In this document: one piece after another, positions 3,045-49,820 of the stretch | Position numbering within the stretch: position 1 is the first letter of the stretch | Layout: the number at the start of each line of letters is the position of its first letter | Assembly: GCA_963575745.1 (NCBI GenBank) | Contig: CAUYUJ010000001.1 | Coordinates: forward strand, 2,108,001-2,172,000 | Direction: 5' to 3' | DNA length: 64,000 nt | Origin: Prorocentrum cordatum | Taxonomy: Eukaryota | The notes under the pieces: generated by a model | What the model was told of the DNA's origin: nothing | The model's input: the letters and a program-made list of their open reading frames with translations, nothing else | Databases searched by the model: none | Program-made: the position numbers and the translations under genes

Positions 3045-3515
3045 GACAGATCGGCGATAGGCCCCCCCATAGTGAATCTGCACCTTCCTGTGCAAGTTGG
3101 GGCTATCGGGCCCTTCTCAGCGATCAATGGATGTTTGGGGGTCGATGCATCCTCCCCTATGCCTATCCTCCCCTATCGTTGCCCCTGAGAAGAGCCAGGG
3201 GATAGAGGAACAAAACACGTCATGAACATCAACTGTTGGTACTCCGCGCGGATTTCTTGGATCTGCGGTCCGCGACTGCTTTCTTGGAATCCAAGACAAG
3301 AAACCCGCGCGGAGCGCCAAGAGCTTATGTTCATGCCGTCTTTTGTTCCTCTATATTTTGGCTCCTCTCGGGGGCAACGATAGGGGGGGAAAGGCATGGG
3401 GGGGATGCATCGACCCCCAATCGCCCAGTGATCGCCGAGTGGGGCACGATGGCCCCGCCCCAACTTGCACAGGAAAGTGCGGATTCACTATGGGGGGCCT
3501 ATCGCCGATCTATCG
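3045..3515. repeat. ~470-bp imperfect palindrome (foldback); core related to the GH92 intron elements
   Basis: Arms GATCGGCGATAGGCCCCCCCATAGTGAATC... / ...GATTCACTATGGGGGGCCTATCGCCGATC. Core CATGAACAT..CCGCGCGGATTTCTTGGATC resembles ~37599-37640 and ~44190-44210. Confidence 0.8.
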
Positions 3516-11600: not shown

Positions 11601-13815
11601 GTCCGATCACCAGTTGCGTCTGACACGGCCATGTCAATGTGTGCTCTATCAACTCATACAATTCACTCAGACTTTGCAGGGCTGTGTCAGGCTGCCTTTC
11701 CACATCTGTCGGTGATAGCCTGTCCACCCCTTGTCCAATATTCGGCCTCATTTTTTTTGTTGCTCTTCTGATTTCATCTGGCTCCAATGGCAAAAGGGGG
11801 TCCGCTTGGGCTTCCTGACGCGCATGTGCAAACGCTGCATCTAGCTCTTCCAGGCTTTCCAACTTTGGACTCCACAACTTTTCCCACTTTGGTAACTTTG
11901 CATCCAGGATAACTTTCGGCGACGTGTGCATTTCTCCTTTCTCATCCTGAAACTCCTGCTTGACCAGTGGCGCATCCTTTATTGAACGATGTAGGGCTCC
12001 CAAGGCTTGAGGCGATTCCACCCACTCTTTGAACTTTTCCAGTGATTTGAACAACGCTCTGCCTTGAGATCTTTTTGCCACTTTGGTAACCAATTTTACA
12101 ATCTTTGTTAACGTGCCGTCACTTTGCTCATCAATCGTTCTTCTGATTCGCTGGATGCTGCTGAACGTTGGCTCCAGTCGTGTAAGAACCTCCGACGCTT
12201 TTTGAGGTGCACTGTTAACCAATTCTTTACATGCTGCCAAATACATTTCTGTCTGTTGCTTCCCATTTTGCCTTTCTCGGTGTCGGCCCAAATTCTCAAG
12301 AATTGTCGCCATCCGAGTCCACCAATTTGCTACTTCATCATATAGGGGTTGAGTGCCACCCATCTGCGATTGCTGAACTGTCCCTGTATGGAAACTGGCC
12401 GAACTCGTCCGAGATGGGCCAGGCGGTAACTGACATGCGTGATGTGTGCAGATACTTTCCTCCAGCGTTGCGATCCATGTCGCATACGCGCTCGAAACTG
12501 CACTCAAATGGCTAGAGCCAAAACGGTTACAGAGAGAGTCCAGGAAGTGGGGAGAGGGGGGGCAACTGCTGGCATGGATATAGCCAACCCGCGACCTGCT
12601 CTCCCTCCAGGTGACCTCGGGGATCCAGAACGTGGGGCTCTCTCCTTGGGGCTCGTCGTGGCTGTTTAAACGAGGCGGCGGAGCAAAGCACACACAACTG
12701 GGATCCGAGGGGGCCGTGTCCTGTGAGAGCCAATCGCGCTCAGGCCACTCCTCGAGATTATCTTCAACCTCGAATTCAAAATGACCATCTTCCTCACCCT
12801 CGGCAGGAGCACTTCTTAGTTGCTCAGCTGGAGGGCTCGGGTCTAAAGCATCGTGAAACATCTCTTTATAAGCTTCTATACGCTTCTCCCTAGCAAGCGA
12901 TTGTTTAATTTTGCGAGCATTCCTAGCAAGAGACGATTTGGATCCCTCCGTGGCCTCTTTGGTCGGACGGGGCTCCTGGGGCAACCTACCTGGCAGCTTT
13001 AACACGCGGGTCTCAAGACTAGTTCCCTCAGACAGGATCTCAACCGAGAGGCCGATATGGGGCTTCCAGGGCACACTGACCACAGGAGCTATGCTCTTAA
13101 TGAGGGGTCGGGCGGAGACCGAGCAGACGATATAGTCAAGATGCGAGCCGTTTTTCCCTGGCGAGCACGTCACCTCAACGGGCGCCTGCACAACTGCTCC
13201 TCCCACAGCATCAAGAAAACCTGATTTCATCAAAGTCTGAGGTGATACGTTGAAGTCACCCGCGACCGCCCACGGCACTTTCAACGAAGTGAGCAGGGCA
13301 CCCAAATGATGATATCTCGCGATGTTTTTTCCTGTCATCCCTATCGATGGATGACCATAGAACATGATTAGCGCCATTGCAATTCCCTGGAACTGAAAGA
13401 GTGTAGGACAGAAGCCGTCCCAACAAGCCTGACCTTTGGCCTGACTTGACTTCATACACTCTGGTCCCAGCAACGGCTTGATTTGTAAATGACCTTTTGA
13501 TAAGATCCACTCTCCCCATTCATTCGACTTAGCTGCTCTGGCAGCCGAAACATGCTTGTGAGTCTGTCTCGCTTTGTTGGCTAGCAATCTCAACTTCTGT
13601 TTACGAGCACGAATGTCCCATTTTTTTATTTGAGCGGCAGCCACATGTGTTTCAACAAACCCAATGTATTCGTAGCTATCAAGCTTTGTCTCCACATATC
13701 TCCAGCACTTGTCCCCCATTGCCGTGATATTCGCAAAGAAAAAATTGCTCACCCCATTGTTAGTACTTGTGCTAACTCCTGCCTCCGAGTTGCCCATCTC
13801 AGAGGCTCCTTTCAC
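8668..13815 (-). CDS. LINE ORF2: AP endonuclease, reverse transcriptase, RNase H, Cys-rich tail; frameshifts near 9850 and 9190
   Basis: APE: GFVETH, AGDFN, HLDY, WKPH. RT: GVDRL, DRVIGL, DIKGFYD, IIQG, WIDD, YLG. Zn motif CPRCG..ETPFHRIWGC. RNase H (8982-9908 frame): FGDASGG, QTVARGELRA, ADN, VNSH, GNAAAD. Tail: CLRC..WFCICCG..KPC. Confidence 0.9.
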
Positions 13816-13827
13816 GTCGGAACCTAG

Positions 13828-24300: not shown

Positions 24301-25181
24301 CGGAAAACCAAGAACACCTCAGGAACACAGAAACAAAACAAAGAACTCAAAGGCATAATCCAGCAACAAAAACGAAGGTCAAATAAAGCAAACAAAACAA
24401 TAACGATTACACTATTTAGTCTACCCTTTCTCCTCCTCCTTCTTCTCCTCGTCCTCCTCCTCCTTCTCTTCCTCCTCCTCCTCCTCCCCCTCATCATCCT
24501 CATCCCCGGCCGCGTCTTACGCTCGTCACATCTTCCTCCTCCCCCCCCCGCCCTTCACCCCTCACCCCTTCCTCCTTCCTCCTCCTCCTCCTTCTCCTCC
24601 TCCTTCTCCTCCTCCCCCTCCCTCCCCCTCGCTTCCTTGCCCTGCTCCATGGAAGGGGCTCCGCGGCAAGCTCAAAGTTCAGTTCGTTGACGAACGTGCC
24701 GGTAGCGTGCCTGTAGCAAGGTGTCTTGTCGTATGTGAGGCGTTCCAGAAAGGGCCTCGCCTTGGAGGATTGCCGGAGTTGCCACCTCTTCCTCGGCGGG
24801 GGGCGGCGGAAGTACAGCAAGGGCGGCTCCGTCGGCAGAAGCCGGCGACGGTTCGGCGGAGGGCGGCGGAAGTCAAGCGTGCGCCCCCCAAGAAATGTCG
24901 TTTTGTTGGATGCGGTGTTTCCGGAATCGGCCGTGCACCTGCTGTGTCTCACGGCTGCTCCTCGGCCCTTCGCCCTCGCTGCGCCGCTCGAGGCCTCAGT
25001 GCCCCCCCCCCCGGGGCGGGCGGCGACTGCTCGGCCAGGCCCGGGCGGGGCGGCCACTGCGGCCGCAAGGCTGCGCCCGCGGCGGGCTGGCCTCCCCGGG
25101 CCCCGGCGGGGGTAGGTTTGCAGAGTGACTGCAGAGGGGGAGGAAGAGGTGTCGATACCGCTGCCTTGGCCTCGCTTTTCA

Positions 25182-25352
25182 CCACCCACCAAACCACCCC
25201 AACCCAACCCGAAGGCCCAAATTTATCCTCGATTTCCAGTGGGGGGGGGTCGGGGAACACTGAAAAAACACATGGAATCCGTCCCCCCCCCCAACCCGAA
25301 ATTCGACTCAAATTCGGGTCTTCGGGTTGGGTTGGGGTGGTCTGGTAGGTAG
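25182..25352. mobile_element. MITE with ~33-bp TIR, TCA on both sides
   Basis: CCACCCACCAAACCACCCCAACCCAACCCGAAG / CTTCGGGTTGGGTTGGGGTGGTCTGGTAGGTAG; copies at 37733-37893 and partial at 28516. Confidence 0.8.
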
Positions 25353-28333: not shown

Positions 28334-30469
28334 TAGGCCAACTCCCCGACTGTAACGTGGCGCAGACTCGGCGGACACACACAGCGCACGGGGCGCCCGC
28401 GAGCGCCCACGCGGCGTCACGGGCGGCAACGTGGCGCAACCTCGGCGGAGCCACCCCACCAACGGGGCGCCCACGAGCGCCCCAGGGGCGGCGCGGGGCG
28501 GCAACGTGGAACTCACCACCCACCAAACCGCCCCAACCCAACCCGAAGGCTCAGATTTACCCTCGATTTCTAGTGGGGGGGGGTCCGGGAACATCGGAAA
28601 AACACATATGGAGCCCATATCCCCCCCAAGGGGCGGCGCGGGGCGGCAAGGCTCGGTCATCCCAGGGGCGGCGGGGCAGAGGGGGCGGTTATCCCGAGAC
28701 CTGGCCGATTGGATCACGACAGGTCGTGATATCCCGACCCGATTGGATCACGACAGGTCGTGATATCACGACAGGTCGGCCCCTGGTGATCACGATCCCG
28801 AGGGGGCGGTTATCCCGATGACACGACCAGGGGCCCGCGGGGATTGGCGCCCGCGGGATGAGCGCGAGGCTCGGTGGGCCCGTGAACGGAAGCAGTACCC
28901 CCTAGGTGCACGCATCGTTTGGGGCGCAAAGGGCTTCTGAGACGTGTCTGTCCCCCGGGGGCCTCCCGCGGAGGCTCCGTGCCCACCTTGGCTCCAGCCT
29001 GGCCCGAAGCCTCCCAAGGATGCCCTGAGAGGCCAACACCTTTTTTGAGTCGAATCGGTTGTTCCACGTGTTTTGGCTTTGGGCGAAGGGGGGGCCAATC
29101 ATAGCCCCCCCCCGTCGGAGGCCGAAGCATGGTTTCCTGGGGCGCTCCTGGGGTGCTGTTCGGAGGGCCGCCTTGGAGCCACCCTGGGGCCCCTCCTGGA
29201 GGCACTCCCGAACCATGCTGAAGCTTTCTTGAGCCGTCTTGGGCCATCTTGGCGCTGCTACGCGTCGCCCCCGCTCCCCCACCTTGTCCAAGCCCAGGGA
29301 GGGGGGGTCAGGCTCCGAATGGGAGTGCCAGAGGCTGTCTCGCTCACTTTCGCCCGCCATGCCACCATGCCAAGCAGTACCAGAGACTCAGCCCAGCCAG
29401 AGGTCGCCATCGGACGGATGGACAGCCAAACGCCAATGCGGCGCTTGCACCCGCAACAAGCTCGCACTGGTCTTGTGGAGTGGGGCAGCGGGACAGCGCG
29501 CAGCGGTCAAGTCACACCCTAGAAAACCCCATCAGTGGGTTTCCCTGGAGTTCTGGCAGAAGCCATGCCCGCCTTCCCTGGCTCACCCGCCGAAGTCGGC
29601 CCAGAACCGTGAACCTGGGGTCCCGGCCGCCCGCCGAGATCGACCCTGAACCCGGAACCCTCGAACCCGGCCGCTTGCGACATCGCCTTTGACGGGGGAA
29701 CCGGGGAACCCGGCCGCCGATCGAAATCGGCCCGAATTGTTCGCGTATTCTTTCAGCTTCCGCCAAGGCCCCTTGCTCGGACCCCTTCAGTGCAGCCGCT
29801 GATTCGGGCGTATATGCTTACCCCTCCGCCATCCGTATCCAAAGTCAACGCGAAATGCTCTCGAGAATTCCGCTCACGATCCAGATGTTGCAGCTACGTG
29901 CGTTCCATCGTGCTTTTTGACAGGGATGGTGGGGAGTGCCCTCGCGGTTCCTGATTGACTGCCGGTCGATTGGGAAAAGGGTTTAATAATATTGAAGCGG
30001 TGATGAACAATAAACCCCTCCCGAAGGCGGGGAAGCAGGGAATTGGAAGACCGAACTCACTAATATACCTGCTCCCAAATTGTTGGTGGGATGCTGGGCG
30101 CTGAGCACGGGGCCGATTTCCTCCCAGATGTCGAGGGTTCGCGATGGAGGTGGTGCGCCGTTGTTGTCGCACGCCAAGCTGTGCTTTTGCATTCGCCCAG
30201 CTTTGCGTGCCTCTTTCTGATCCTCCCAGGTGCGCTTTCCATCATGAACTCCCGCTCTCAGGGTGGCACAGGGCCTCGGACACGCGATCCATCTTGTCCA
30301 TGGCCCAATTTCTCCCTTAGGCCCACGGGGAACAAGTGGCACGCGCGCCTTGGCTCTTGCACCAAAGGAGCTGGGAGGGACAGGAGGCTTTCGCTCCCTT
30401 CCTCCAGGAGTTCCTTCCGTGGCCGTGGGGAGGGGAGGACGAACGACGAACGAACGAACGACGACGACG

Positions 30470-34048: not shown

Positions 34049-35130
34049 TACCGCTGCTGGCGGAAAACCGAGGGGGGGGGGTCACAGGGGGTTCCCAACC
34101 CGTCCCCCCCATCCCCCCCTCGAAAGCGGGGGGGGGTCACTACCGGTTCGAACCCTCTCCCCCCCTCCAGTCCATCATGAAAAGGGGAGGGTGTCACTAC
34201 CGGTTCGAATCCCCCCCCCGCCGCCGGCAAACGATTCCCGCTCTTCGGGACAGTTGGACAGTGGTGGGGATACTGGGACAGTGGTGGTGACGGTGGTGGG
34301 GACAGTGGTGTGGGGACAGTGGGACAGTGGGGCGGACAGTGGGACAGTGGTGGGGACGGCGGTGGTGGGGACAGTGGTGAGGGGACAGCGGGACAGTTGT
34401 GGATACAGTGGGGACAGTGGGACAGTGGTGGGCACGGTAGTGGTGGAACCAGTGGTGAAGGCGGTGGTGAGGACGGTGGTGGGACAGTAGTACAGTGGGG
34501 AGAGTGGTGGGGACAGTGGGGGCAGTGGGACAGCACAGTGGGACAGCACAGTAGGACAGCGGCGGGGACAGTGGGACAGTGGCGGGAACAGTGGGGACAG
34601 TGGGACAGTGGTGGGGACAGTGGGGACAACGGAGAGAGTGGGACCGTGGTGGGACAATGGCGGGGAGAGTGGGGACAGTGAGACACTGGTGGGGACAGCG
34701 GGACAGTGGTGTGGGACAGTGATGTGGGGACAGTGGGGAGAGTGGGGACAGTGGTGTGGGGACAGCGGGACAGTGGCGGGGACAGTGGGGGACAGTGGGA
34801 CAGTGCTGGGGACAGTGGTGGTGGGGACAGTGGTAAGGGCGGTGGCGAGGGCGGTGGTGTGACAAGGAGACAGAGGTACAGTGGGGATAGTGGTGGGGAC
34901 AGTGGGGGCAGTGGTGGGAACAGCGGGACAGCTCAGTGGGACGGCGGCGGGGACAGTGGGACAGTGGGGACAGTGGGACACTTGTGGGGACCGTGGGGAA
35001 GTGGTGAGAGTGGGACCGTGGTGGGAACAGTGGTGGGCACAGTTGGGACACTTCGACAGTGGCGGGGGCACTGGTGGGGACAGTAGGGACGGTGGTGGGA
35101 ACAGTGGGAACAGTGGTGGTGTGGACAGCG
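34049..35130 (+). repeat. Element head (TACCGCTGCTGGCGGAAAACC..GTCACTACCGGTTCGAA) plus (GGGACAGTG)n satellite
   Basis: Same organisation at 48911-49820. Confidence 0.85.
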
Positions 35131-35149: not shown

Positions 35150-36260
35150 CGGGGGAGCGCCTTGTGGGGTCACTACGCGCGTGAAGGGTGAGCCGGAATG
35201 GGGCGGGGCCGCCATTGAGGCCTTCATTGGAGCTCCTTATGGGGCCACGTAGCGTGTGAGGGGTTTGCCGACATGTGTTGCGGGGGCGCATGCGGGCCGC
35301 GCCTCGGGGACCTTCGGTGGAGCTCCCTCTTATGGGGCCACGAAGCGTGTGAGCGGTGTACAAACATGGGTGGCAGGGACGCATACAGGCTGAGCAACTG
35401 GGGCCTTCGGCGGAGCTCCATGCGGGACCACGAAACGTGTGAGGAGTATGTCAAAATTTGTGGTGGGGACGCATGCGGGCTGCGCCGCTGGCACCTTCGG
35501 CGGACCTCCCTGTGGAGCCACGAAGCGTGTGAGGGGTGTGCCAAAATGGGTGGCGGGGACGCATGCGGGCTGCGCCACTTGGACCTTCGGTGGAGCTCTT
35601 ATGGGGCCACGAAGCGTGTGATGGGTGTGCCGAAATGGGTGGCGGGGACGCATGCGGGCTGCGCCGCTGGGACCTTGAGTAGAGCTCTTACGGGGCCACG
35701 AAACGTTTGATGGGTGTGCCGAAATTCGCGGCGGGGACGCATGCGGACTGCGCCACTGGGACCTTCGGTGGAGCTCTTCTGGGGCCACGAAACGGGTGAG
35801 GGGTTTGCAAAAAAGGATGGCGGAGACATTGTGGCTGCGCCGCTCCCCATGGGGCGACGAAGCGTGCGAGGGGTGTGCAGAAATTGATGGCGGGGACGCA
35901 TGCGGGCTGCGCCAGTGGGGCCTTCGGTGGAGCTCCATATGGGGCCACGAAACGTGTGAGGGATGTGCCCACATGGGCGGCAGGGGCGCATGCGGGCTGC
36001 GCCACTGGGGCCTTCGGCGGAGTTCCTTACAGGCGGTGGGTGCATCAGAATGGAAGGCGGGGGCGCATGCGGGCCGCGCCACTGGGACCTTCGGTGGAGC
36101 TCTTCTGGGGCCACGAAACGCGTGAGGGGCGTGCCGAAATGAGTGGCGGGGACGCACGCGGGCTGCGCCATTGGGACCTTCGGTGGAGCTCCTATGAAGC
36201 CGCGAAGCGTGTGAAGGGTGTACCGAAATGGGCGGCGGGGACGCATGCGGGCCGCGCGGC
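35150..36260 (-). repeat. ~88-bp minisatellite, inverted relative of 16770-19230
   Basis: CCTTCGGTGGAGCTC..TATGGGGCCACGAA units. Confidence 0.85.
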
Positions 36261-36374
36261 GGGGTTGAACGAAACGTGTGGGTGGGCGTACCAAAGGTCA
36301 AATTTCGGACTCGGTCCTGTCGTTTCCCCTTCAGACAGATTCGATTCAGTAGAAGGGGCATACATCTGTCTGCG

Positions 36375-36426
36375 TGGTGGCTGGCATCCGAAGTGGCCAG
36401 CCCAGATTACCGTAACAGCATGATTG
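36375..36426 (+). pseudogene. 52-bp diverged copy of an internal GH92 segment (GGWxPKWASPxYRNSMI)
   Basis: Matches 43582-43634 with substitutions and a 1-nt deletion. Confidence 0.85.
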
Positions 36427-36442
36427 ACAATCTTGTGGGCGT

Positions 36443-36463
36443 TCCGTAGCCATTTTGGCCAAG
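36443..36463 (+). other. Dinoflagellate spliced-leader relic upstream of GH92
   Basis: TCCGTAGCCATTTTGGC-CAAG: SL with one deletion, 44 nt before ATG 36508. Confidence 0.92.
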
Positions 36464-36507
36464 GGGCCAGGCGCCGCCGCGGTCGACCGTGACGGCCAGG
36501 CCCTCTT

Positions 36508-37581
36508 ATGCCATGGCTCCATGCAGGGGCGCCCTCTCTTTGGCCTCAGCTATTCGGAGCGTGGCTTCTTCGGGGCTGCCCACATGAAGCCGTGGCGTTC
36601 CCGGTGACCGAACCCGTGGATTGGGTCAACGTGTTGTCGGGCGCGGCGGGCGGCGAGCGCATCGGGCAGCACCACAGTGGGGGGAGCACGCTGCCGCTCG
36701 CTGCGCTGCCGTGGGGCTTCAACCACTGGGCGCCCCAGTCGAACAGCGACAAGACGAGCTGGTGGTTCGACGCCGACTCCGACACCTTCCGAGGCATCCG
36801 CTGCACGCACCAGCCGTCGCCTTGGATAGGTGACTACGGCTGGTTCCTCCTGCGGCCCTTCCAGGGCTCCCCGAAGGACGAGTGGGTGGGCTTCACCTCG
36901 TACCGCGCGGCAGGGGCGTTGCAGCCGCACTCGATCGACATCACCGCCGGGCCCTACGGGGTGCGCACCGAGCTGGTGCCCACGCAGCACGGCGCCGCTC
37001 TGCGGGTGACATTCCCGGACGTCGTGCCGGCGGACAAGCGGCGCGTCTGCGTGCTGGTGCCGCGCGGGCTCGCGAGGGACGAGGACGAAGCGCGCGCCGC
37101 CGAGGCTTCCGACAGGCCCACCGGCTCCTGCAGCGCGCAGTTTGGCGAGATCAGTTTGGTCTCGCGCAAGTTCGCACAAGGCGTGCCCCTGGGCTCCGAC
37201 TTTGCGCTCTACGCCTGGCTCGAGGCGGAGGGGCTGAACGCGGAGGAGCGGGAGGAGACGGACTGGTGCTTCGAGCGGGATGTACGCTACGTCAAAAAAG
37301 ACGGAGCGCTCACCATGAGGGGGCACCCGAAGAAGAAGGCGGGCAGCGCCCAGAAGTGCCAGGAGAGGTGTTTTCTCGCCCTGGGGTGCGAGAAGTTCTC
37401 TTATCTGGACGACGGGAGCTGCTACCTGCTCAACGAGCCGATGGTCCTGCAGAGGGCTGAGGGCGCCGTCTCCGGACCCGCCGACTGCGACGGGCAGGTG
37501 CAGCCGGTGGGCAGCCGGGAGTGCTGCTTCCTCGCCGGGGAGCGGACGCAGGTGGAGGTGCGGATCGGCACCTCGCTCATC
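36508..37581 (+). CDS. GH92 alpha-1,2-mannosidase, exon 1 (N-terminal domain with inserted PAN/Apple domain at 37264-37488)
   Basis: GSTLP..PWGFNHWAPQ, GIRCTHQPSPWIGDYG, ..RIGTSLI; the 3' boundary is inferred from protein continuity. Confidence 0.88.
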
Positions 37582-37732
37582 TCGAAGAACAAAGGGGCAT
37601 GAACATAATTGCTCGGAGTTCCGCGCGGATTTCTCGGATCTGGGCCCCGCCGCCTGGGCCCCTTGGCCACGCCTCCGGCGCCGCCCCTGGCGCGCTCCAC
37701 GCGCCAGGGAGGGGGTTCAGCCCGATGAATCA

Positions 37733-37893
37733 CCACCCACCAAACCACCCCAAGCCAACCCGAAGGCTCAGATTTACTCTCGATTTCCAGTGGGGGGGGT
37801 GTCGGGAAACATCGAAAAAACACATGTGGTACCCTTACCCCCCCAACCCGAAATTCGGGTCTTCGGGTTGGGTTGGGGTGGTCTGGTGGGTAG
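37733..37893. mobile_element. TCA-flanked MITE nested in GH92 intron 1
   Basis: Same family as 25182-25352. Confidence 0.8.
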
Positions 37894-38034
37894 TCAATGA
37901 AGAAATTCGCGTGGAGCTCCGAGAGTTTATTTCCCCCCCAGGCCTAATGGGGCTCCAGTTTTCGCCCCACCCACGTCTTCTTCTCCCGTCCCGTCCCGTC
38001 ACTTCCCCTTCTCCCGCTCCTCGTCCTTCTCGCG

Positions 38035-38050
38035 CGCACACGCATACACA

Positions 38051-38126
<76 letters not shown>

Positions 38127-38245
38127 TCATACACTTGCACACACACACACACACACACACATTATAGCCGTGCACACACAACACCAACGCACCATACACC
38201 CCAGACGTATGCATCAGGGCGCACACACATCACACACACACAAAC
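38035..38245. repeat. (CA)n microsatellite, followed by a ~90-bp tandem repeat to ~38640
   Basis: Direct reading. Confidence 0.85.
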
Positions 38246-38649
38246 AGAATACACTCATGCTTCGGGTCGGTCGTCCAAGGCATAGCAGGCATGGCACTGG
38301 CACTTTCGCGACACCAGAGGGGGTGCGCAGGGGGTGGTCCCTCACTACGGTCTCTATACGCGCCAATCTCTCAGGGGCCTAGCAAGCGTGCGATTCACGA
38401 CGCCCGAAGGGGGTACGTATAGGGTGGACCCTCCCCTCGATCTCTACACGTCCCAATAGCGCATGGCCAAGCAGGCGTGGCACTTTTTCGACAGTGGAGG
38501 GTGTGCAGCGTGTGGTTCTTCACCGCGGTCTCTACACGCGCCAATGTCGCAGGGCCAAGCAGGCGTGGCACGTTCTCGACACCAGACGGGGGTGCGCCGG
38601 GCGTGGTCCCTCACCGCGGTCTCTATTCGCGCCAGGCGGAGGTCGACGC

Positions 38650-41530
38650 AGGCCCTGACCTTCCTCGATGCGTCAACGAGTTCGATTCCATCGCCATTGA
38701 GCTGGTTAGTCACGAGGATCGCGTCTGGCACCAGGGGCATTTTCACGACCCCGATCGTCTTCCGGGAAAATCCGAGGACCCCGCGCGAGGTGTCAAGTGA
38801 CGATCACCTTGGCTTCCCAGGTGGGCAGGGCTCCGCGCGCCCCCCCTCGGGAACGGGGCCCAGCCGGGGCCGAGCGCGCCCGGGCCCGGTCGGCGCGAGA
38901 ACGGGCGCGAAGCTCGCCCGGGAGGTTGCGGCGGGACCAGATTCAGCGAGCCAGCGCGGCCATGGCACCTTCGACTCTTCGGAAGTGCGCGCCTGGGCAG
39001 TGGGTCTTGATGGGGGGCGAGTTATCGCGGGCCTCCTCCCGACGGGGCTCTGCGGGGGTTCGAGCGGGCGCTCGGCGTGGCCCCAGACTGGCGGCCCCCC
39101 GCGAGCGCGGCGCCGCGCGGGCGCCCGCGCGCCCGCGCCAGTGGAAGCGTTTTTCGGCCCAGGCGCGGCCCGCCAGTTCAGAGAAGATTCCAAGCGGCAG
39201 GGGCCGCAGCGGCGGGCGTCGTCTCGGAGGGCCTCTGCGGTCGACGCGGGGAGGGCGCCCGGGCCCAGCCTCTCCAGGCCGACGCGATTGGCATAGGCCC
39301 TAGGCCTTCTGGGCCAGCTCCGGAGGCCGAGGTCATTCCCCCCATGGGGCCCGCGTCTCATGTCGAGCCCCCGGCACCAGTCAGTCCGGGATCCGCTCGT
39401 CCCCTTTCGATTGCCGAAGAAGATGGCGTGTTCCTCCTCCTCCTCCTCCTCCTCCTCCTCCTCCTCCTCCTCCTCCTCCTCCTCCTCGTTTTGTTTTCCT
39501 CCTCCTCCTCCTCCTCCTCCTCCTCCTCCTCCTCCTCCTCTTCCACCTGGTCAGGGGTCAGGGGTCGAGGTCTGAGTCCGAGTCCTCGGCCGCCGGCAGT
39601 CTGGCGTTGCCCTATCCGACCGATTCCGCGTTTCACGATTGGCGGGTCTGCAGTCGCAAGACCCTGGTTCAGCCAGACGACGTGCCAGCGATTGCCCGAT
39701 GAAGTCGGGAAGGGTTGCGCTCGGCCCCCGGGCGCGAGCGATGTCGGGCGGGCCCGAGTCGGAGCCGAAAAGACCGCGCCCGGGGGGGGGGGGCCGGAGA
39801 TTCTTTTCACCGAGCCCCGCTCGCTCGGCGCGACCCTGCGGAAGGTGGCCGATATCGAGACCGGCGGACCTCGCCAGCCCGGAGCGCCCCGGGGGAGGCC
39901 CCCGCAGCTGCGCGGCGACCGCCGAGGGGGGGCGCAGTCCGAGCGACCGCCAGCCCCAGGCGCGCCGCTCTGGGCGACGGTGGATTCGGAGGGCGGCCTC
40001 CAGGCCGTCGCCGCGGGCAGCATCCCCACGGTAGGTTCGTGTCGTGTCGACCGGCGGCGACCCCGCCAGCGGCGTTCAACTTTGAACGCCGGCGGCGGCC
40101 CAGAATCGATCGATGTTGAACGATTGGACGTTGCGGAAACGGCCGATCGTTCAAGGTTGAACGATCCCCGCGGTGTCAAAAACCAACGCTGGGGTCGGCA
40201 CGACACGAACCTGCCGCAGGCGCTTCGCGGGCGAAGAAGGCCCCGGAGGCTCGGCCTCATCAGCGCCCAGCTCACGCAGCTCGGACTCGCGCGCCATCCG
40301 GCGCGGCTCGGACGCGACGGGCAGGCCGTCTCCAGAGGGGCGGGCCAAGTCCGACGCGCGGAAGCACCCCTAGTTCCAAAGCTGCGAAGGCGATTTCCCC
40401 CAAGGAGGCGGCGGCCGCGCGGTGGGCGGCGCCGGGGCGCATCATGAGCTCCAGGTGGTTCGCCGGTGGACACGGAGGGGACTTTCAAGTCTCCCGCCGC
40501 GCTGTCGCGGCGGCGCGTCCACGGTCGCCAGGGCCCGGGCACCGACCCCCCAGACCAGTCACGACGTTTTTCCCGGCGGCGATGAATTCACAAATGAGAT
40601 GCGACATCGCGGACGTCGGGAACGCGCCCCGTCAAAGTGGCAGGTCTGACCGGGGCATCTGCGCAATGCCCCCGGGCCCCCGCCCCCCGCGGGCAGTCTC
40701 ACCCAGCCTCTCGCGAACGCGCATGGCCTGCACGACGCGCCCTTCGCTGGGGAGGCGCACCGTCGCCGGGGAGCTGGTCGAGTCGGGGCCGTGTCGGCAT
40801 GTTCGGCATGGCCCTCGCGAGCAGAGCATCAGCGCGATCGCGCGGGAAGTCGACGACTTCTTTATGACGCCCAGAAGGGCAGCCGAGCGGAAGCGACTCG
40901 GGGAGAGTCTCGAGAGCGGGCTTCAGTTCGACATGGCCGAGATTGCCGCGAGGGGCTGGTGGGCTACGCGGGAAGGGCGTCGACACATTGTCGACCGAAG
41001 GTTCTTGTGGACATGGCGAGGTACAACTTAGAAGAGGCCGCCCCCCATGAGCATGATCCCCGGCAACTTTCTCGGCGGGGAGGAGATCCGCGCCCCGCGC
41101 CACCCTCGTCTACCGCCCGAACTGGGGAGGTCGCAGGCGTCGCCCAGAAGCGCGTGGAGTGGCTCGCATGCTGGCGCGCCCCGACTGGCGGCCCCCACCG
41201 CTCGGGGCGTGATGCGCGCGAGCGAGAGCTCGCCGGGCATCCGCTGGCGATCGCTTCTCGGGGGCTTGCGGCCTGGGCTTTGCACCGCGAGCGCGCGGCT
41301 CTCGCGACATATCCCGACGCCGGCGGCGCGGGGGCCGCTGCCGGGGTGCGCGGCGACGACGCCCTCCTGGCCGACCCCGCCCAAGGGGCGCGCGCGATCC
41401 CCGCCCCTCGCGCGGATCGGGTTCGAAAGCGCCCAGTGAACGCTCCGGTGAGCGGATGGCGCAGTTGCAGGCGCAAGAGAGGGGCCCATTTGCATTTCGG
41501 CCAGAGAAGCGCTCTCGCTTTCCGCGTCGG
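38650..41530 (+). mobile_element. Heavily decayed Ty1/copia-like pol relic inside GH92 intron 1
   Basis: Motifs in copia order across frames: RIMSSRW, DIADVGNAPRQ (~DV..AFLQ), NAHGLHDAP (~VYGL.DAP), REVDDF, TYPDAG, GWRSCRRKR (RNase H). No LTRs seen; boundaries approximate. Confidence 0.65.
40029..40216. mobile_element. 188-bp MITE, copy 3 (flanked CA/CA)
   Basis: Same length and sequence family as copies 1 and 2. Confidence 0.85.
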
Positions 41531-43192
41531 TGTCTGAGGTAGACTGTGCGCCTCATTGTGTCGTGACGTGGTTGTCCATGATGTTTCCAGACTGCTCGCG
41601 GGCTTCCAGCTTCTCGGTGCTGAGATCGCAGCGCACTCTGGATAGTGGCAGGGCCACTCGGTTGCAGTTCGTCGATGCCAGATCTTCGCACGATACTGCG
41701 ATGAAGGAAGGGGGCGCTTCTTCTCAAGATAAACGCACTGCACTAGAGTTAGCCATCGTGTCCGAGGGCCTCGCGAATGCCACAGGGTAGTGCGATGGCC
41801 CCCCCGCTCCAAGATGCCAGCGGGCCGGCCTGCTAATGGCGCATTGGCAAGTCGAACGCGGCGCTGTCCCAGATCTCGGCGCCCGGCAGGCTGGCGCTGG
41901 CGGAGGGGCCCGCAGAGGCGCAGGCCCGCCGCCAAACGTCCGAACGAAAACGGTCGATTTCACGCGGCGTCCCATAGGACGCTGGAAGCAGAGGAGTCTC
42001 GATGATTGGGGTCTCGAGTCGACGAGGCCAGCAGGATGCCTCGGCCTCTGCTCGCGTGCTCGCTCTCGTTAGTTCCCACATGTTGTTGTCTTGTTTATTT
42101 CTTTATGTGTTGTTACTCTCTCTCTCTCTCTCTCTGTCACTCTCTCCCTCTCTCTCTCTCTCTTTCTCTTCGTTTTTTTGCTCTCTCTCTCTCTCCTCCC
42201 TCATCTGGTCGTCGACTCGACTGGGCCAGAGCTGCCGAAACTACCAGACAGTTTGACGAACGTTCACATCGATATCGCTTCGGGCGCCCGATGTCCAATA
42301 CAGGCCTGGCGCGAATATAGTTTTTCCCGAAGCAGTGCATGCAGCATTAGAGGTTCTTACTTCGGCTAACCATCTCGGGGCCGCCGCCGCAAAATCGCCG
42401 CCGCGCCGCCCGTCGCCGCCTGTCGCCGTCGCCGCCCATCGCCGCCACCCCCGCCCGTCGCCGCCCGTCGCCGCCCGCGCCGCCCGTCGCCGCCTGTCGC
42501 CGTCGCCGCATCGCATCCAGTGCGCCGCATAGATTGCGTATCAATAGGGTGGTACTAGTACGAGTACTAGTAATCGCAGTCGCTGGCTACCACAAGTAGA
42601 GCAGTTCTGGCACGCACGTTACCTTAGTGGACTCTGGGCGCCATGGTTCAAGTCCGATATATATATATATATATATATATATATTACTGTCGGCCCCGCT
42701 GCCACAACTAGTCCCTGAACGCAAGGAGTGGCAGGCTGGCATACTGGCATTTCGTCGACACCACAAGTGGTGTGCACAGGGGTGGGCGCTACATCCGTCG
42801 CAGGCTCGCAAAGCGTTGCCTGCGTGGCACTTTCTCGACATCGCGGATGGTCCGCAGGGCGCGGTTGCCGTGGCCGTCGCACTCTCGCAACCAGTGGGCT
42901 TCATGTCGAAGAGCTGCGTACCGCCGCGCAGGAATGAATATGACAAGGGCGGAATGGGAGGGAACCAACATTGAAAAGGGAAGAGGGGAGCATTGAGGAT
43001 GTTTACGCACTGCTGCGCTGCACACGTTGAGACATTGCGTAGGTGTCGCCAAGATGCACCACACTATGTTTGAACGTTCGGGAAAGCGGGATACGACACA
43101 GGTCATGCACACACACACACACACGACATAAGATGAGCATGTGGGGCTCCTCGGTAACGACACGTTTATGCATGCATTATTCTTCGACCATT

Positions 43193-43839
43193 TCGTCAAC
43201 CCAGAGCTTCGCCGCGTTCATGCAGGAGGTGCACGGGCGGCCGTTCGAGGCCCTGGCGGCCGTGGCGAGGGACACCTGGAACTCTCAGCTGGCGCAGGTG
43301 GAGGTCGCTGACGCGGGGCCGAACGCCGCCTCGACGTCGCGGCGGCTCCGGATATTCTACACCTGCCTCTACCGAGCGCTGCTCTTCCCTCGCCGCCTGG
43401 ACGAGCAGACGGCGGAGGGCGTGTTCCACTGGAGCCCCTACGACGGGAGGGTCCACGACGGCATCGGGGTGACAGACAACGGTTTCTGGGACACGTTTCG
43501 GACGGTGTACCCGTTGCTGGCTTTGGCCTACCCCAGGCAGCTTGGCGAGCTCGTGCAGGGGTGGTTAAACGCCTACAAGTATGGCGGCTGGCTTCCGAAG
43601 TGGGCCAGCCCAGGCTACCGCAACAGTATGATTGGTACCTTTGCCGACGTTGTTGTGTCGGACGCGATACTCAAGCACATACCCGGTTTCGACACAGCCT
43701 TGGCGTGGGAGGCGATCCGGAAGGATTGCTACCAGTCAAGCGACCCGAACGACACTGCCAGGGGGAAGCATGGCCTTTCCTACTACGACAGTCTAGGTTT
43801 TGTCCCCGCGGACGTTGGTATCGCCGAGTCCTGCTCCAG
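43193..43839 (+). CDS. GH92 exon 2
   Basis: FYTCLYRALLFP, DNGFWDTFRTVYPLL, GGWLPKWASPG..MIG, ESCSR; ends at a GA donor; 5' boundary uncertain (43193 or 43205). Confidence 0.9.
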
Positions 43840-43966
43840 GATTTCGGAGGGGGACAACGGTACAGATCCACCTCGTTCCCCTCCCTCCCCTCCCCCAGAA
43901 AGGAGGAAGGCATTCTGAGGAGGGAGGGGGAAAGGAGGTGGATCTTTATACACGTTCGATGTCCAG

Positions 43967-44141
43967 GACTTTGGACTTTGCCTTTGCCGACGCCGCCTCG
44001 GCGGCAGCGGCGGACCAACTGGCGCACCCAGAGGATGCCCAGAGGCTGCGCGAGAGGAGCGCGCGCGCGCTGAAGGCGCTCTTCCGCGCGACAGGCGGCC
44101 TCATGGGACCCCTCGGCAAGGACGGCAATTTCTCGACCCAG
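43967..44141 (+). CDS. GH92 exon 3
   Basis: (R)TLDFAFAD...GLMGP..DGNF; flanked by GA-AG introns 43840-43966 and 44142-44309. Confidence 0.85.
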
Positions 44142-44309
44142 GAAGTCGGGGAACAGACAGCTGCACAAACATATAAACTTTCGCAGCCCCGCGCGCGGAT
44201 TTCTCGGATCGACACCGTGACCACCGTGGCGGCGCGCCGATCCCAGACACCCGCGCGGACCTCCCACAGCCGTTGTCTATATGTTTATGTAACTCCTGCT
44301 TCTTCGAAG

Positions 44310-45056
44310 GAGGGCAACACGTGGGGCAACTGCTTCATCGAGGGGTCTGCGTGGCATCACTCCTTCCCGCCGTTCAACCTGCCAGCGCTGCTCGAGCTGC
44401 ACGGTGGGCGAGGAGCACTGATGGCTCGACTGCGGGACCTGCTGTCGACGCCCGCCACCTTTCAGGTCGGGTCCTACAAGACCACGATACACGAAATGCG
44501 CGAGATGCGCATGCTCGGCATGGGGCAGTACGCGCACAACAACCAGCCGGTGCACCACGTGCTGTACCTCTTCTCCATGCTCGGCGACCATAACTCAACT
44601 GCGCAGCTCGTGCGGCAGGTGCTCTCCCGCGCGTACTCGACGAGCGGCTTCGTCGGCGACGAGGACAACGGTGAGATGGGCGCCTGGTTTGTCCTGAGTG
44701 CCCTCGGACTGTACGCGCCCGCAGTGGGAACCACCGACGAGTACGTCCTGGGCGCCGTGCCGCTGTTTCCAAAGACCGTCCTGCACAGCCTGGGCATCAC
44801 CATCGAGGCCCCGTCCGCCTCCCAGGAGGCGCCCGCCGTCGCCGAGGTCCTCTGGAGGTCGTCGCCTCTCACGGGGGCGTCGGGGGCATCGGTGCGCTAC
44901 CGATCCTTGCGGGCTGGTGGAACTATGCGCTGGGTATCTCCCGGCGATGCCAGGATCGGCCGCGCCGTCTCCAGGATGCGCGGCACGCTCGGCGAGGCAA
45001 TGAAGAGGGTGAGCCCTGGGATTGGTGAGAAGTCGCTGCCCCAGCGCGCCGACAGC
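44310..45056 (+). CDS. GH92 exon 4 (catalytic motifs)
   Basis: FIEGSAW, IHEMREM, QYAHNNQP, GDEDNGEMGAWFVLSALGLY; 3' boundary 45056, or 45008 if the GT donor is used. Confidence 0.9.
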
Positions 45057-45058
45057 AT

Positions 45059-45338
45059 TCGAGGAGGATGGAATTGCATACGTACACAGAAACTTTCGGA
45101 GTTCTGCGCGGCTTTCTCGGGTCGGCGCCGGCCCCCCCTCCCTGGCGCGCTCTGCGCGCCAGGGAGGGGGCCCCGCGCGAATCCGAGAAATCCGCGCGGC
45201 GTTTCGAAAGTCCACAACTATGCAGTTTCCTCTCCCGCCGATCGGCGGCGAGCCCAGGGGGGGAAGCTCCTCCTTCTCCTCCTCCTCCTCCTCCTCCTCC
45301 ACCTCCTCCTCCTCCTCCTCCTCCTCCTCCTCCTCCTC

Positions 45339-45369
<31 letters not shown>

Positions 45370-45780
45370 TCATACTCCTCATCCTCATCCTCGTCCTTCT
45401 TCTCCTCCTCTTCCTCCGGCAGAGGGGGTGGGCCTTCTCAGAAGGATCAGAAGGCCTCCGGCTTTCTGAGAAGCTATCGCGTCCCTCTCTGCAGACACGG
45501 GTGGCTTCCCAGAAGGCGCGATGGCTCCCGATAGGCCTCGCCACTTTCTGAGAAGGCCTGCCCCCTCCAAGATCCTTGTCGTTTGGCTTTCGGCTCGTAA
45601 CTTTTTGTTTCCTGCGGCCGTTCGAGAAGATCGTGGGCACCCCCAGAGCGTTCTCGGCGAGGCGCAGCCGCTGTAACGCATCCCGAGGCTGGAACACCAC
45701 CTAGAACGAACGAAAACAGCCCGAAGACCTATCGAACCCGAAGCCACTACATTTTCCCCCTGGTCTCGCCGCCGATCCGA
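45059..45780. mobile_element. TCGA...CCGA element forming GH92 intron 4, with nested MITE 45242-45775
   Basis: Direct repeat AGCAT at 45054-45058 and 45780-45784; nested TIR TCGGCGGCGAGCCCAGGGG / CCCCTGGTCTCGCCGCCGA flanked GCCGA/TCCGA. Confidence 0.8.
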
Positions 45781-45782
45781 GC

Positions 45783-45929
45783 ATGCCGCAGCCCGCCTCC
45801 TGGCAGCTGCCGGGTGCGGCGGCCGCCTGGCTCCCCTGGGCGCTCGGCGTGCTGCTCGCGGCGGGCACAGCGCACCGCTGCTGCACGGCGTGCGCGTGCT
45901 GCCCTGGCGCCGCAGACAAGGCCGAGTGA
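45783..45929 (+). CDS. GH92 exon 5: TM anchor and Cys-rich tail
   Basis: MPQPASWQLPGAAAAWLPWALGVLLAAGTAHRCCTACACCPGAADKAE*; in frame once the element plus one TSD copy is removed. Confidence 0.72.
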   Translation: MPQPASWQLPGAAAAWLPWALGVLLAAGTAHRCCTACACCPGAADKAE

Positions 45930-46034
45930 CACCTTGCCGCGGTGGGCGGCCGCGCCTTGTCGGCGACGAGAAACCAGTCGACCAGTCGATGCTGTCCCAA
46001 TCCATGCAGATCTCCGACGATGTGTGTCCTTCGA

Positions 46035-46056
46035 TCCGTAGCCACTTTGGCTCAAG
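46035..46056 (+). other. Dinoflagellate spliced-leader relic upstream of the EAL gene
   Basis: TCCGTAGCCACTTTGGCTCAAG (21/22), 26 nt before ATG 46083. Confidence 0.95.
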
Positions 46057-46082
46057 CCCCTGCCTGGCGTCTGGGGTGCAGG

Positions 46083-47357
46083 ATGTCTTTACTAAATCAG
46101 CAGCAGATGTTCGAGCTTGTGGCCGCTAGCTATCCAGACGTGTTGACCAGGAGTGTGTATCGACCTATGCAGCTGCCAAAGCCCCTCTTCGCAATGCCCC
46201 TGCAGGATAAGCAGGAGCTGTTCGTAGAGGCGCTCCAGGGGATGTTGCGAGATGCGAACAGAGGGAAGCCTCTTGTGGAGGTCGCGTACGATAATAACCA
46301 GTCAAGACTGTTTTCGTTCGGGCTGCAGCCAGTATGGGAGGCGCGCGAGAACAAGGAGCAGTCGAGGCTTGTCGGCCTGGAGAGCCTCCTGGCGCTGCAC
46401 ACCGGCACCTGGGGCGTCGGCCTCGTGGTGGACGTGCTCGAGAACCTGCTCGACTCCGACGTGGAGCTCTACCTGCAGTTCAAGGGCCTCGAGATCAAGG
46501 CGGCCGTGAGCGCCCTGGAGGTCTTCCCGAACCTGCCGTCCATCAGCGTGAACCTGCGGCCCTCGGAGTGGCTCCTGCTGGAGGTCCAGAGCCTGGTGAT
46601 CGACGCGACCCACTGCGCGCCGGGCCGGATCATCTTCGAGGTGACCGAGTACACGCAGGACGCCCACTTCTCCAGGTTCTTCGGGGAGCAGGGCCCGCTG
46701 CCGCATCGCCTGAAGGAGACGCTGCTGCCGGTGCTGCGCCGCATGAAGGAGGCGGGCGTGACGCTGCTCGCGGACGACCTGCTGCCTGCCAGCGTGTATC
46801 GCTTCGACTGCGAGGCGTCGCACAGGAATGGCCATCGCCTCGCGGACCACCACGCAACCGAGAGCAGCACAATGTTGTCGGCAGACTGGTCCGATGCGTT
46901 CGATGGCGTAAAGTTTGGCCTCGAGTGGATCGTCCACGCAATGAGCCTAGGAAAGCACAGTGGCGCGGACTATGCCGCAGTGCCCCTGTATGCCAAACAC
47001 GTAAAGGATAGTTCTACTTACGTCGCAGCAGTGACCGATAGCCCAGTCCCAGAAGAGGAAGTGGATAAGCGTGCTGCTCTTCGTGACCTTCAGGCGGCGG
47101 CAAAGGTGGAGTTGCAGGCTGTTCTGAAAGATGTCCAGGAACGTGCGTTCAAGCACTTGCCTGTTTTCGAGGCGACACTGCCACCCGCTGCGATCGTCGA
47201 ATGGGGCCTGGAGGGTGCCGCGAAGGAGCAGGGAGGCGTGTTTTTCGAGGCTCGATTTCCCCCCGCGTGGTTCTACGGCTCGGTACCTTCTTTCCCAGAA
47301 GCGCGGTTCCCAATGGTGTCCCGCTACAAAGTGCACGCATCATACCTTGAACAATAA
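46083..47357 (+). CDS. Intronless EAL-domain (c-di-GMP phosphodiesterase-like) protein, 424 aa
   Basis: LQPVW..VGLESLL, ISVNL, RIIFEVTE, LRRMKEAGVTLLADDL, FDGVKF, VFEA, EQGG appear in EAL order. Confidence 0.8.
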   Translation: MSLLNQQQMFELVAASYPDVLTRSVYRPMQLPKPLFAMPLQDKQELFVEALQGMLRDANRGKPLVEVAYDNNQSRLFSFGLQPVWEARENKEQSRLVGLESLLALHTGTWGVGLVVDVLENLLDSDVELYLQFKGLEIKAAVSALEVFPNLPSISVNLRPSEWLLLEVQSLVIDATHCAPGRIIFEVTEYTQDAHFSRFFGEQGPLPHRLKETLLPVLRRMKEAGVTLLADDLLPASVYRFDCEASHRNGHRLADHHATESSTMLSADWSDAFDGVKFGLEWIVHAMSLGKHSGADYAAVPLYAKHVKDSSTYVAAVTDSPVPEEEVDKRAALRDLQAAAKVELQAVLKDVQERAFKHLPVFEATLPPAAIVEWGLEGAAKEQGGVFFEARFPPAWFYGSVPSFPEARFPMVSRYKVHASYLEQ

Positions 47358-48910: not shown

Positions 48911-49820
48911 TACCGCTGCTGGCGGAAAACCGGGGGGGGTCACTACCGGTTCGAACCCCTCCCCCCCCCCTCCGGCAAACGGGGGGGGGTCACTACCGGT
49001 TCGAATCCCTCTCCCCCCCCCCCGTCCATCATGAAAAGGAGAGGGGGTCACCCCCTGTTTGAACCCCCCCCCCTCCGCCCTCGAAAACCGGGGGGGGTCA
49101 CTACCGGTTCGACCCCCCCCCCCTCCTCGAAAACCGGGGAGGGGTGCGGACAGTGGTGGGGACGGTGGTGGTGGGGACAGTGGTGAGGGGACAGCGGGAC
49201 AGTGGTGGGGACAGTGGGACAGTGGTGGGGACAATGGTGAGGACAATGGTGGGAACAGTGGTGGGGACGGTGGTGGTGGGGACAGTGGTGTGGGGACAGT
49301 GGGGACAGTGGTGGAAACAGTGGGACAGTGGAGGGTGCAGTGGTGGTGGGGACAATGGTGACGGCGGTGGCGAGGACGGCGGTGGGACAATGGGACAGAG
49401 GTACAGTGGGGACAGTGTGGGGAGAGTGGGGACAGTGGTGGGAACAGTGGGACAGCTCAGTGGGACAGCGGAGGAGTCAGTGGGACAGTGGGGACACTGG
49501 GGATAGTCGGGCAGTGGTTGGGGCCGTGGAGAAAGTGGGGAGAGTGGAACCGTGGTGGGAACAGTGGCGGGGACAGTGGGGACAGTGCGACAGTGGTGGG
49601 GGCACTGGTGCGGACAGTAGGGACGGTGGTGGAACCAGCGGGGGCAGTGGTGGTGAGGACAGTGGCGCTGGGAACATTAGTGGGGGATGTGGTGCGGACG
49701 GTGGTAGGGATCGGGAGTGGTTTGCTGGCGGTGAGGGGGGGGGAGGGGTTCGAACCGGTAGTGACCCCCCCTCTGGTTTTCAGGAGGGGTTCGAACCGTA
49801 GTGACCCCCCCCCCGGCTTT
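48911..49820 (+). repeat. Second (GGGACAGTG)n satellite element with inverted GTCACTACCGGTTCGAA arms
   Basis: Homologous to 34049-35130; TTCGAACCGGTAGTGAC at ~49750. Confidence 0.85.

Follow-up and report, generated by a model that had tools for sequence, protein, structure and literature searches.

Hairpin-element introns with consensus and non-consensus borders in a spliced-leader-tagged GH92 gene of Prorocentrum cordatum

Introner-type introns and the GH92 locus

The leading explanation for intron-gain bursts is that transposons make introns, and the case richest in introns is that of the dinoflagellates. The locus described here lies in a 64,000-nucleotide stretch of Prorocentrum cordatum contig CAUYUJ010000001.1 (positions 2,108,001 to 2,172,000 of the forward strand; the whole stretch is hereafter called the window, and its first letter is position 1). 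It consists of a GH92 (alpha-mannosidase-type) gene that follows a relic of the dinoflagellate spliced leader (DinoSL) and is interrupted by four introns, each containing a hairpin-ended element. All four interruptions are removed from the RNA, and the reading frame is thereby restored. Two of them, introns 1 and 4, are spliced without any canonical register, an unexpected feature that a first-pass annotation made from the sequence had missed. The locus belongs with the known introner-type introns of dinoflagellates, and its new aspect is the RNA-backed non-consensus borders of these two introns.

In the parasite Amoebophrya, introner elements consist of a hairpin with direct repeats and have no consensus borders, and joining of the exon ends by the stem has been proposed (Farhat et al. 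2021, PMC7789003). As described in the relevant passages of that paper, the non-canonical introns of Amoebophrya have inverted repeats close to either end, direct repeats of 3-5 nt spanning the boundaries and a predicted hairpin, lack consensus dinucleotides, and resemble miniature inverted-repeat transposable elements (MITEs) with no encoded transposase; the present introns are like them in these respects. The same passages report short introns (mean 120-240 nt) occurring genome-wide in a compact parasite genome apparently without U1, whereas here a single locus of a GC-rich, repeat-rich genome is concerned, one intron reaches 5.6 kb, and GA..AG introns of the same element class are found in the same gene.

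A second comparison is offered by Introner classes 13-14 of Polarella/Symbiodinium, in which, according to the preprint of Roy et al. (2020), an AGGH target duplication supplies both splice sites. Introns 2 and 3 of the GH92 gene can similarly take both splice sites from a duplicated AGGA, with the GA donor typical of young introns. In these classes, according to the preprint text, the duplication length is fixed and the borders are invariably G[TCA]..AG; here, by contrast, the repeat length varies and two introns lack such borders.

For P. cordatum itself, introner elements have been reported in 2.4% of introns, in a genome of 59.7% GC with long introns (Dougan et al. 2023, PMC10666404); the GC content of the window is about 0.5-0.7 (per 2 kb). 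The operational definition given there, an inverted repeat of 8-20 nt plus a direct repeat of 3-5 nt near the intron ends, is shared by the present introns. The passages concerned describe gene models limited to GT/GC/GA donors, so that introns like 1 and 4 would not have been modelled, and contain no description of a family, an RNA junction or a retrogene context. Likewise, in the parts that deal with splicing, a review from 2024 and an Amphidinium genome paper from 2025 give GT/GC/GA as donors, with almost universal AG acceptors, for core dinoflagellates and report other borders only for Amoebophrya. Within the literature searches made and the passages considered, neither a report of consensus-free hairpin introns in a free-living dinoflagellate nor a use of a spliced-leader relic to time introner insertions was found.

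Removal of the four interruptions from GH92 RNA

The coding sequence is divided into five exons:

36508 to 37577, + strand: exon 1, with the ATG and the GH92 N-terminal domain (Pfam and contigs X7 record 12, X1 record 1 and X19 record 7); its 3' end is ambiguous up to 37580
43189 to 43839, + strand: exon 2, GH92 catalytic domain, profile positions 6-193 (Pfam and RNA contigs)
43967 to 44141, + strand: exon 3, GH92 profile positions 204-259 (Pfam and RNA contigs)
44310 to 45056, + strand: exon 4, GH92 profile positions 269-459 (Pfam and RNA contigs)
45780 to 45929, + strand: exon 5, with a hydrophobic segment at the C terminus, a Cys-rich tail and the stop codon (RNA contigs and alignment)

Four public RNA runs were aligned to the locus, namely X7, X1 and X19 (poly(A) RNA library) as contigs and X23 as raw reads. 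At least 20 listed RNA runs contain part of the stretch, the best of them about 0.3 of the sampled words, which matches the exon share. Transcript contigs of the three data sets skip all four interruptions. A 2869-nt contig of X7 spans 36468-45965 with 0 mismatches and carries all four joints, 37577>43189 (5611 nt), 43834>43962 (127), 44139>44308 (168) and 45056>45780 (723); joints 2 and 3 are repeated in X1 and X19, and joint 4 in X1. The exon-1 contigs of X1 and X19 end at 37580, the exact point at which the spliced and unspliced paths diverge, and for most bins of intron 1 the depth is 0 in each of the four runs. The interruptions are thus real introns, as had been proposed: they are absent from the RNA, and the spliced product is a conserved open reading frame (ORF).

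A further contig of X1 holds the last 35 nt of intron 1 continuous with spliced exons 2-5. This verifies the 3' end of the intron (...TTCTTCGAC) and, because it links the unspliced intron-1 end to spliced exons, indicates that the window locus itself is transcribed. The same observation bears on a different origin of the joints, in which a second copy, identical in its exons but free of elements, would be the source of the transcripts, while the window copy would be a MITE-hit pseudogene and the joints empty sites. Junction 1 does look like an empty site with a 3-bp CAT duplication. Besides the X1 contig, however, such a copy would have to be reconciled with exons that are 100% identical over 2869 nt while intron 1 collected kilobases of nested repeats, with a junction 4 that differs from an AGCAT empty site, and with an intact ORF and intact motifs. 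This origin is consequently considered very improbable.

The protein encoded by the joined exons supports the same junctions. Stop-free removal of the interruptions in silico, which had been predicted to give 929 amino acids, was reproduced, but the RNA-supported coding sequence encodes 930. The additional residue is a Ser (AGC is kept), since intron 4 measures 723 nt and not 726; at junction 1 the RNA keeps ATT rather than ATC, a silent difference. In Pfam, PF17678 (GH92N) is matched with 71.1 bits and PF07971 (GH92) with 155.1 bits in exon 2 and 128.2 in exon 4, while the 58-aa exon 3 scores 23.2 bits, just below the cut-off of 24.6; the profile positions run on continuously across exons 2-4. 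Exon 1 additionally gives a weak PAN/Apple-like match (20.3 bits against a cut-off of 21.4), and the PAN family is also among the precomputed domains of some dinoflagellate homologues.

A search with the exon 2 protein returned 788 matches, and the closest among the 120 listed is 66% identical. None of these 120 entries equals the GH92 protein, and the junctions therefore cannot be checked independently against public proteins. Fourteen homologues picked among the 120 were aligned with the RNA-based protein. Junctions 1-3 are gap-free inside the conserved motifs GTS/LIS, ACS/RTLDF and ../..TWG (a slash marks the joint here and below), whereas junction 4 falls within a variable stretch ahead of the C-terminal tail, a tail that the aligned homologues also have. 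The motif EG..W.HSFP is present in all 15 aligned sequences and GDEDNGEM in 14, this protein included. Both are taken by us to be active-site/catalytic motifs of GH92, and on this assumption the catalytic motifs appear intact, in agreement with the first-pass annotation. Taken as a whole, the gene is likely a functional, expressed GH92 gene of a dinoflagellate.

Hairpin elements and splice borders

The introns and the elements within them are as follows:

37578 to 43188, + strand: intron 1, 5611 nt; joint 37577>43189 in the X7 contig
37582 to 43187, + strand: element 1, family member with perfect 8-nt ends TCGAAGAA/TTCTTCGA heading a longer imperfect stem
43840 to 43966, + strand: intron 2, 127 nt; repeated TCCAGGA; joint in X1, X7 and X19
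43844 to 43959, + strand: element 2, hairpin of 116 nt, TCGG...TCGA, lacking the core motif
44142 to 44309, + strand: intron 3, 168 nt; repeated AGGA; joint in X1, X7 and X19
44146 to 44307, + strand: element 3, family member with core and inverted core, TCGG...TTCTTCGA
45057 to 45779, + strand: intron 4, 723 nt; joint 45056>45780 in X1 and X7
45059 to 45239, + strand: outer family element of intron 4, which has the core in both arms and continues with its final 3 nt at 45778-45780
45240 to 45777, + strand: nested element in intron 4, with 22-nt terminal inverted repeats 95% complementary and a (CTC)n tract

For the splice borders, all registers allowed by the junction ambiguity were enumerated, 19 in total (4, 8, 5 and 2 for introns 1-4). 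Intron 1 can be read as CA..AC, AT..CC, TC..CA or CT..AT, and intron 4 as AT..CG or TT..GA; G[TCA]..AG is therefore reached in 0/4 and 0/2 registers, respectively. In introns 2 and 3, the element or its duplication does furnish G[TCA]..AG borders: GA..AG occurs in one of the eight registers of intron 2, inside the repeated TCCAGGA, and in one of the five of intron 3, inside the repeated AGGA, both with an AG/G acceptor. The earlier proposal that a duplicated AGG supplies both the GA donor and the AG acceptor of these two introns holds in the sense that the duplicated AGGA offers their sole GA..AG register.

These borders can be placed beside two further descriptions of repeated or structured intron ends. 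According to Mendez et al. (2015, PMC5032977), in the parts concerned with introns, dinoflagellate intron borders repeat 2-9 bp, one copy of which is kept in the mRNA. Introns 2 and 3 fit this identically repeated boundary, AGG included. The pattern as given there always has AGG/GG, which is missing from the repeats of introns 1 and 4 (CAT; A). Euglenid nonconventional introns, as far as described in the passages of PMC12501133 considered, share the variable non-canonical borders and the joining of intron ends by secondary structure. In contrast to them, the Euglena code (N3-CDG ... CH'G-N5-6/R) fits 0/19 registers here, and the lineage is unrelated. Two other rules were tried and rejected. 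All four introns allow a 5' cut 2 nt before TCGR, but the 3' distance is then +3, +9, +4 and -1, so that no fixed spacing results; for a bulge-helix-bulge, the flanks of intron 1 do not pair. In introns 1 and 4, the distance from the cut sites to the terminal stem base is 0-4 nt.

Reverse transcriptase jumping is a known source of false non-canonical introns, and joints 1 and 4 could in principle be jumps across a stable hairpin at short direct repeats, as they lie at the stem base and share few bases (3 and 1). Such an artefact is, however, difficult to combine with a skipped form that is the sole or dominant one in independent studies, with depth 0 in the interior bins of intron 1, and with the near 100% efficiency that a 5.6-kb jump would need. 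Unspliced intron 1 would moreover lead to a stop seven codons in, yet the downstream exons are conserved. A jumping origin of the two joints is accordingly regarded as extremely unlikely.

The available evidence supports the view that the four interruptions are built from mobile hairpin elements. The hairpin element with TCGR...YCGA termini that had been noted in each interruption was recovered: the termini are in place, and inverted repeats were found in all four introns. Elements 1-4 start with TCGA, TCGG, TCGG and TCGA and end with TCGA, TCGA, TCGA and CCGA; TCGR and YCGA within 10 nt of both junctions have P=0.012 per random intron of these lengths and about 2e-8 for the four. Inverted repeats of the size and position that characterize introners (8-20 nt, at most about 30 nt from the ends) are present, with 8/8 bases paired 4-5 nt from the ends of intron 1 and arms that begin 17-21 nt in for introns 2 and 3; in intron 4, the nested element splits the outer arms, yet the folded RNA keeps the ends paired. 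The boundaries are also overlapped by direct repeats, of 3-5 nt in the introner definition, the junction ambiguity being 3, 7, 4 and 1 nt for introns 1-4. The fixed-length target duplication abutting terminal inverted repeats that defines introners for Roy/Gozashti was not observed.

Element 1 has grown to 5.6 kb through nested hairpins (37732-37894 and 40029-40216), an 88-bp satellite and four microsatellites. No recognisable transposase was detected, a Pfam search of 15 long ORFs (three inside intron 1) having found no family. The hairpin of intron 2 has 32-nt arms, 78% complementary, with an RNA fold z of -4.0, and that of intron 3 two 20-nt arm pairs, 80% and 85% complementary, with z -2.4. 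In intron 4, the outer element has 46-nt arms (76% complementary) and a 22-nt central palindrome (91%), and the nested element sits 3 nt from its right end; the composite folds with z -7.8. RNA depth is about 10 on the exons versus hundreds to thousands over the family and nested-repeat part of intron 1, which indicates that the element family is abundant in transcribed sequence. The nested hairpin at 37732-37894 has 44-nt arms, 84% complementary, and partial copies at about 25179-25209 and 28513-28543; together with the neighbouring palindrome CCCTGGCGCG...CGCGCCAGGG, it shows RNA-contig depth up to tens of thousands.

On sequence grounds, elements 1, 3 and 4 belong to one multi-copy family of foldback elements, whose ends are TCGAAGAA...TTCTTCGA and whose arms both carry an internal CCGCGCGGATTTCTYGGATC core. 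The core CCGCGCGGATTTCTCGGAT has seven matches in the window at up to 3 mismatches versus 0.03 expected, located in the left arm of element 1, in both arms of elements 3 and 4, and at about 3244 and 21949. Five copies in the window can be aligned along a conserved module, ...AAACTTTCGGAG.TCCGCGCGGATTTCTYGGATCGGCGCC. When public metagenome contigs were scanned for the core, nine loci were obtained, three of which (L003, L004 and L008) are clear relatives and six of which were rejected as unrelated; two of the three relatives show the TCGAAGAA...ACATAAACATAAAC arm, and the third has no recognisable end. The first-pass annotation had assigned all four elements to one class. This stands for elements 1, 3 and 4 (conserved module, two more window copies, three of nine metagenome matches) but not for element 2, which shows no BLAST similarity to the other elements at E<1e-3 and has only the termini and the hairpin design in common with them. 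Known family copies thus amount to five in the window and three of nine metagenome matches, with intron status shown only within this gene. Co-variation of the outer arms between copies was dropped as a candidate signal; since the metagenome copies show the family consensus, the arm differences are ascribed to ordinary decay. L004 is a complete family member of about 230 nt that ends in TTCTTCGA and has TACCC on both flanks; its left TACCC lies 2 nt from the element, the same offset irregularity as in intron 2. The copy at about 3196-3350 lies inside a larger palindrome (about 3084-3500), an element nested in an element, and its ends read ATAGAGGAAC...GTTCCTCTAT instead of TCGR...YCGA.

Spliced-leader relics and the order of events

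Three features mark the upstream and downstream limits of the gene:

36375 to 36426, + strand: frameshifted GH92-like fragment, matching exon 2 (43581-43634) at 45/53 nt with 1 indel
36443 to 36464, + strand: DinoSL relic 1, first base kept and one T deleted, ending 44 nt before the ATG at 36508
46035 to 46056, + strand: DinoSL relic 2, full length with 1 mismatch, preceding an uninterrupted 424-aa ORF at 46083-47357

The window was scanned with the DinoSL pattern alongside 100 shuffled sequences. It contains two matches on the + strand (36444 and 46036), both shortly upstream of an ORF, versus 0 in the 100 shuffles. Relic 1 reads CCGTAGCCATTTTGGCCAAGG at 36444-36464 with a T before it, its 3 ungapped mismatches being equivalent to a single T deletion; it can also be written T+CCGTAGCCATTTTGGC-CAAG (36443-36464). 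With respect to the definition of Song et al. (2017), at least 9 nt and at most 500 bp upstream of an ORF, it is a 21-nt match with one deletion. The relic reported earlier ahead of the GH92 ATG was accordingly confirmed as a near full-length match, and it is transcribed, as an RNA contig extends to 36449 with 0 mismatches, its own T deletion included. Because it carries this relic, at least the 5' end of the gene passed through mRNA-to-DNA copying. Relics at most 100 nt upstream of the ORF are also described in the parts of PMC5585692 and PMC6050394 that treat DinoSL-tagged retrogenes, and a second relic-tagged gene stands next door here. In contrast to the retrogenes described there, a fragment belonging to the GH92 family immediately precedes the present relic.

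This fragment has a local score of 69, compared with a mean of 18.8 and a maximum of 27 for shuffles, and can be traced at the protein level to about 36355-36443, abutting the relic. It corresponds to exon 2 residues around GGW.PKWASPGYRNSMI (36355-36464 region) and reaches the first base of the relic. The abutment is what one would expect if a reverse transcriptase had finished one mRNA 5' end and switched to another GH92 RNA, leaving a chimeric, 5'-truncated retrocopy; alternatively, the insertion may have occurred into an older paralogue. A tblastn search of the window with the model and the 14 homologues gave 46 matches, none beyond the gene at E<=0.01, so that the fragment is the sole other GH92 piece in the window. 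Neither a parent gene nor a poly(A) remnant of the GH92 retrogene was identified.

The gene after GH92 (45930-47357) starts 65 nt behind the end of the GH92 transcript, and its ORF has no Pfam family. No poly(A) remnant was found between the two, and both together could derive from a single multi-template cDNA. Two satellites flank the two-retrogene block on either side (34073-35119 and 48930-49300), one with a unit of 55 bp in which G and C runs enclose TCACTACCGGTTCGAACCCC and the other of GGGACAGTGG-type repeats, and a tandem repeat of 89-90 bp, present in about 11 copies, occupies 35210-36257, directly upstream of the GH92 fragment. Elsewhere in the window, a 1338-aa open frame on the - strand (9814-13827) has no Pfam family.

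From the relic it had been concluded that the gene was born intronless and that all four introns are de novo gains, which is plausible but not established. Some or all introns may be older than the relic, if an SL-capped, partly spliced pre-mRNA was copied or if the 5' end was converted by cDNA, in which case the gene was never intronless. In the passages of Song et al. (2017, PMC5585692) on retrogenes, SL-relic genes are nearly as intron-rich as others (3.74 introns vs 4.17 in other genes, and 16.74 vs 17.1), some parental introns are kept, and retroposition can precede splicing; the corresponding part of the review by Song et al. (2018, PMC6050394) makes the same statement. Furthermore, the paralogue model P0037 (named Prorocentrum cordatum, 54% identical) is missing a run of 15 conserved residues that ends about 2 aa away from junction 1. 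This gap hints at a mis-modelled non-consensus intron at site 1, as forced G[TCA]..AG modelling would give, and intron 1 is also the most decayed and most nested of the four. The missing block corresponds to ...VRIGTSFIS. On the other hand, each of the four introns is an inserted element flanked by repeats and must have been gained at some time; the neighbouring SL-relic gene has an uninterrupted ORF; and hairpin introns make up 4/4 here, far above the 2.4% reported for one free-living dinoflagellate, if that baseline applies. Introns that predate the relic are, on this evidence, possible but rather doubtful. The description of intron gain as caught in the act was not borne out, since hairpin arms of only 76-85% complementarity, nested insertions in introns 1 and 4 and the 85% identity of the upstream GH92 fragment indicate that the events are not recent.

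A reading of the locus and its meaning

Collectively, it is probable that the gene is an expressed GH92 retrogene that was hit four times by foldback MITE-like elements, each of which is removed from the RNA. Non-autonomous foldback elements would have inserted into the GH92 coding sequence on four occasions, presumably after retroposition, and the pre-mRNA would lose each insertion together with about one copy of the short flanking duplication, leaving the protein unharmed. Where the duplicated target held AGGA, ordinary dinoflagellate splicing with a GA donor and an AG/G acceptor would suffice. In introns 1 and 4, pairing of the element ends may bring the junctions together, after which the splicing machinery or some other activity might join the paired ends without consensus dinucleotides, as proposed for Amoebophrya. 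The anatomy of the elements, their multi-copy family, the removal from RNA and the restored frame are direct observations, whereas the stem-guided step and the timing of the insertions after retroposition are inferred.

Several points weigh against this reading. Joint 1 is seen in a single contig of one run and joint 4 in two runs, and the raw-read run X23, at a depth of about 1, gave no joint rows. The short direct repeats noted earlier, TCATC/CCATT, the TCCAGGACT pair of intron 2, AGGAAG/AGGAGG and AGCAT/AGCAT, are present as written, but TCATC and CCATT are only 3/5 alike and the offsets are irregular: in intron 2, TG lies between the right TCCAGGACT copy and the element, and in intron 4 the right AGCAT overlaps the last A of the element. 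Repeats that vary in this manner (3/5; 8/9 plus a 2-nt spacer; 5/6; 5/5 overlapping the end) are not what one transposase would leave. In addition, the RNA of intron 4 is cut out of the AGCAT register, no single distance between the cut sites and the TCGR/YCGA ends suits all four introns, element 2 is not demonstrably of the family, and the order of retroposition first and insertions later is not established.

A wider proposal may be put forward tentatively, and with considerable reservation: core, free-living dinoflagellates, and not only the parasite Amoebophrya, might remove hairpin-ended mobile elements without a GT/GC/GA..AG consensus, even over 5.6 kb, the paired ends defining the cut. 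The GH92 gene would then show consensus-dependent and consensus-free modes side by side within one element family. If this were true, a foldback MITE landing in coding sequence would be tolerated at once, and gene models that admit G[TCA]..AG borders only would overlook such introns or model them wrongly throughout the genome.

The locus provides a compact, RNA-backed example in which a spliced-leader relic serves as a dated start, followed by four element-derived introns and later nested insertions, and in which splice sites are defined in two ways within one element class. The two non-consensus borders merit genome-wide attention. If consensus-free removal is general in free-living dinoflagellates, annotation confined to G[TCA]..AG would be systematically wrong at such sites, and the recognition of such introns would become testable in a culturable alga, with the GH92 gene as reporter.

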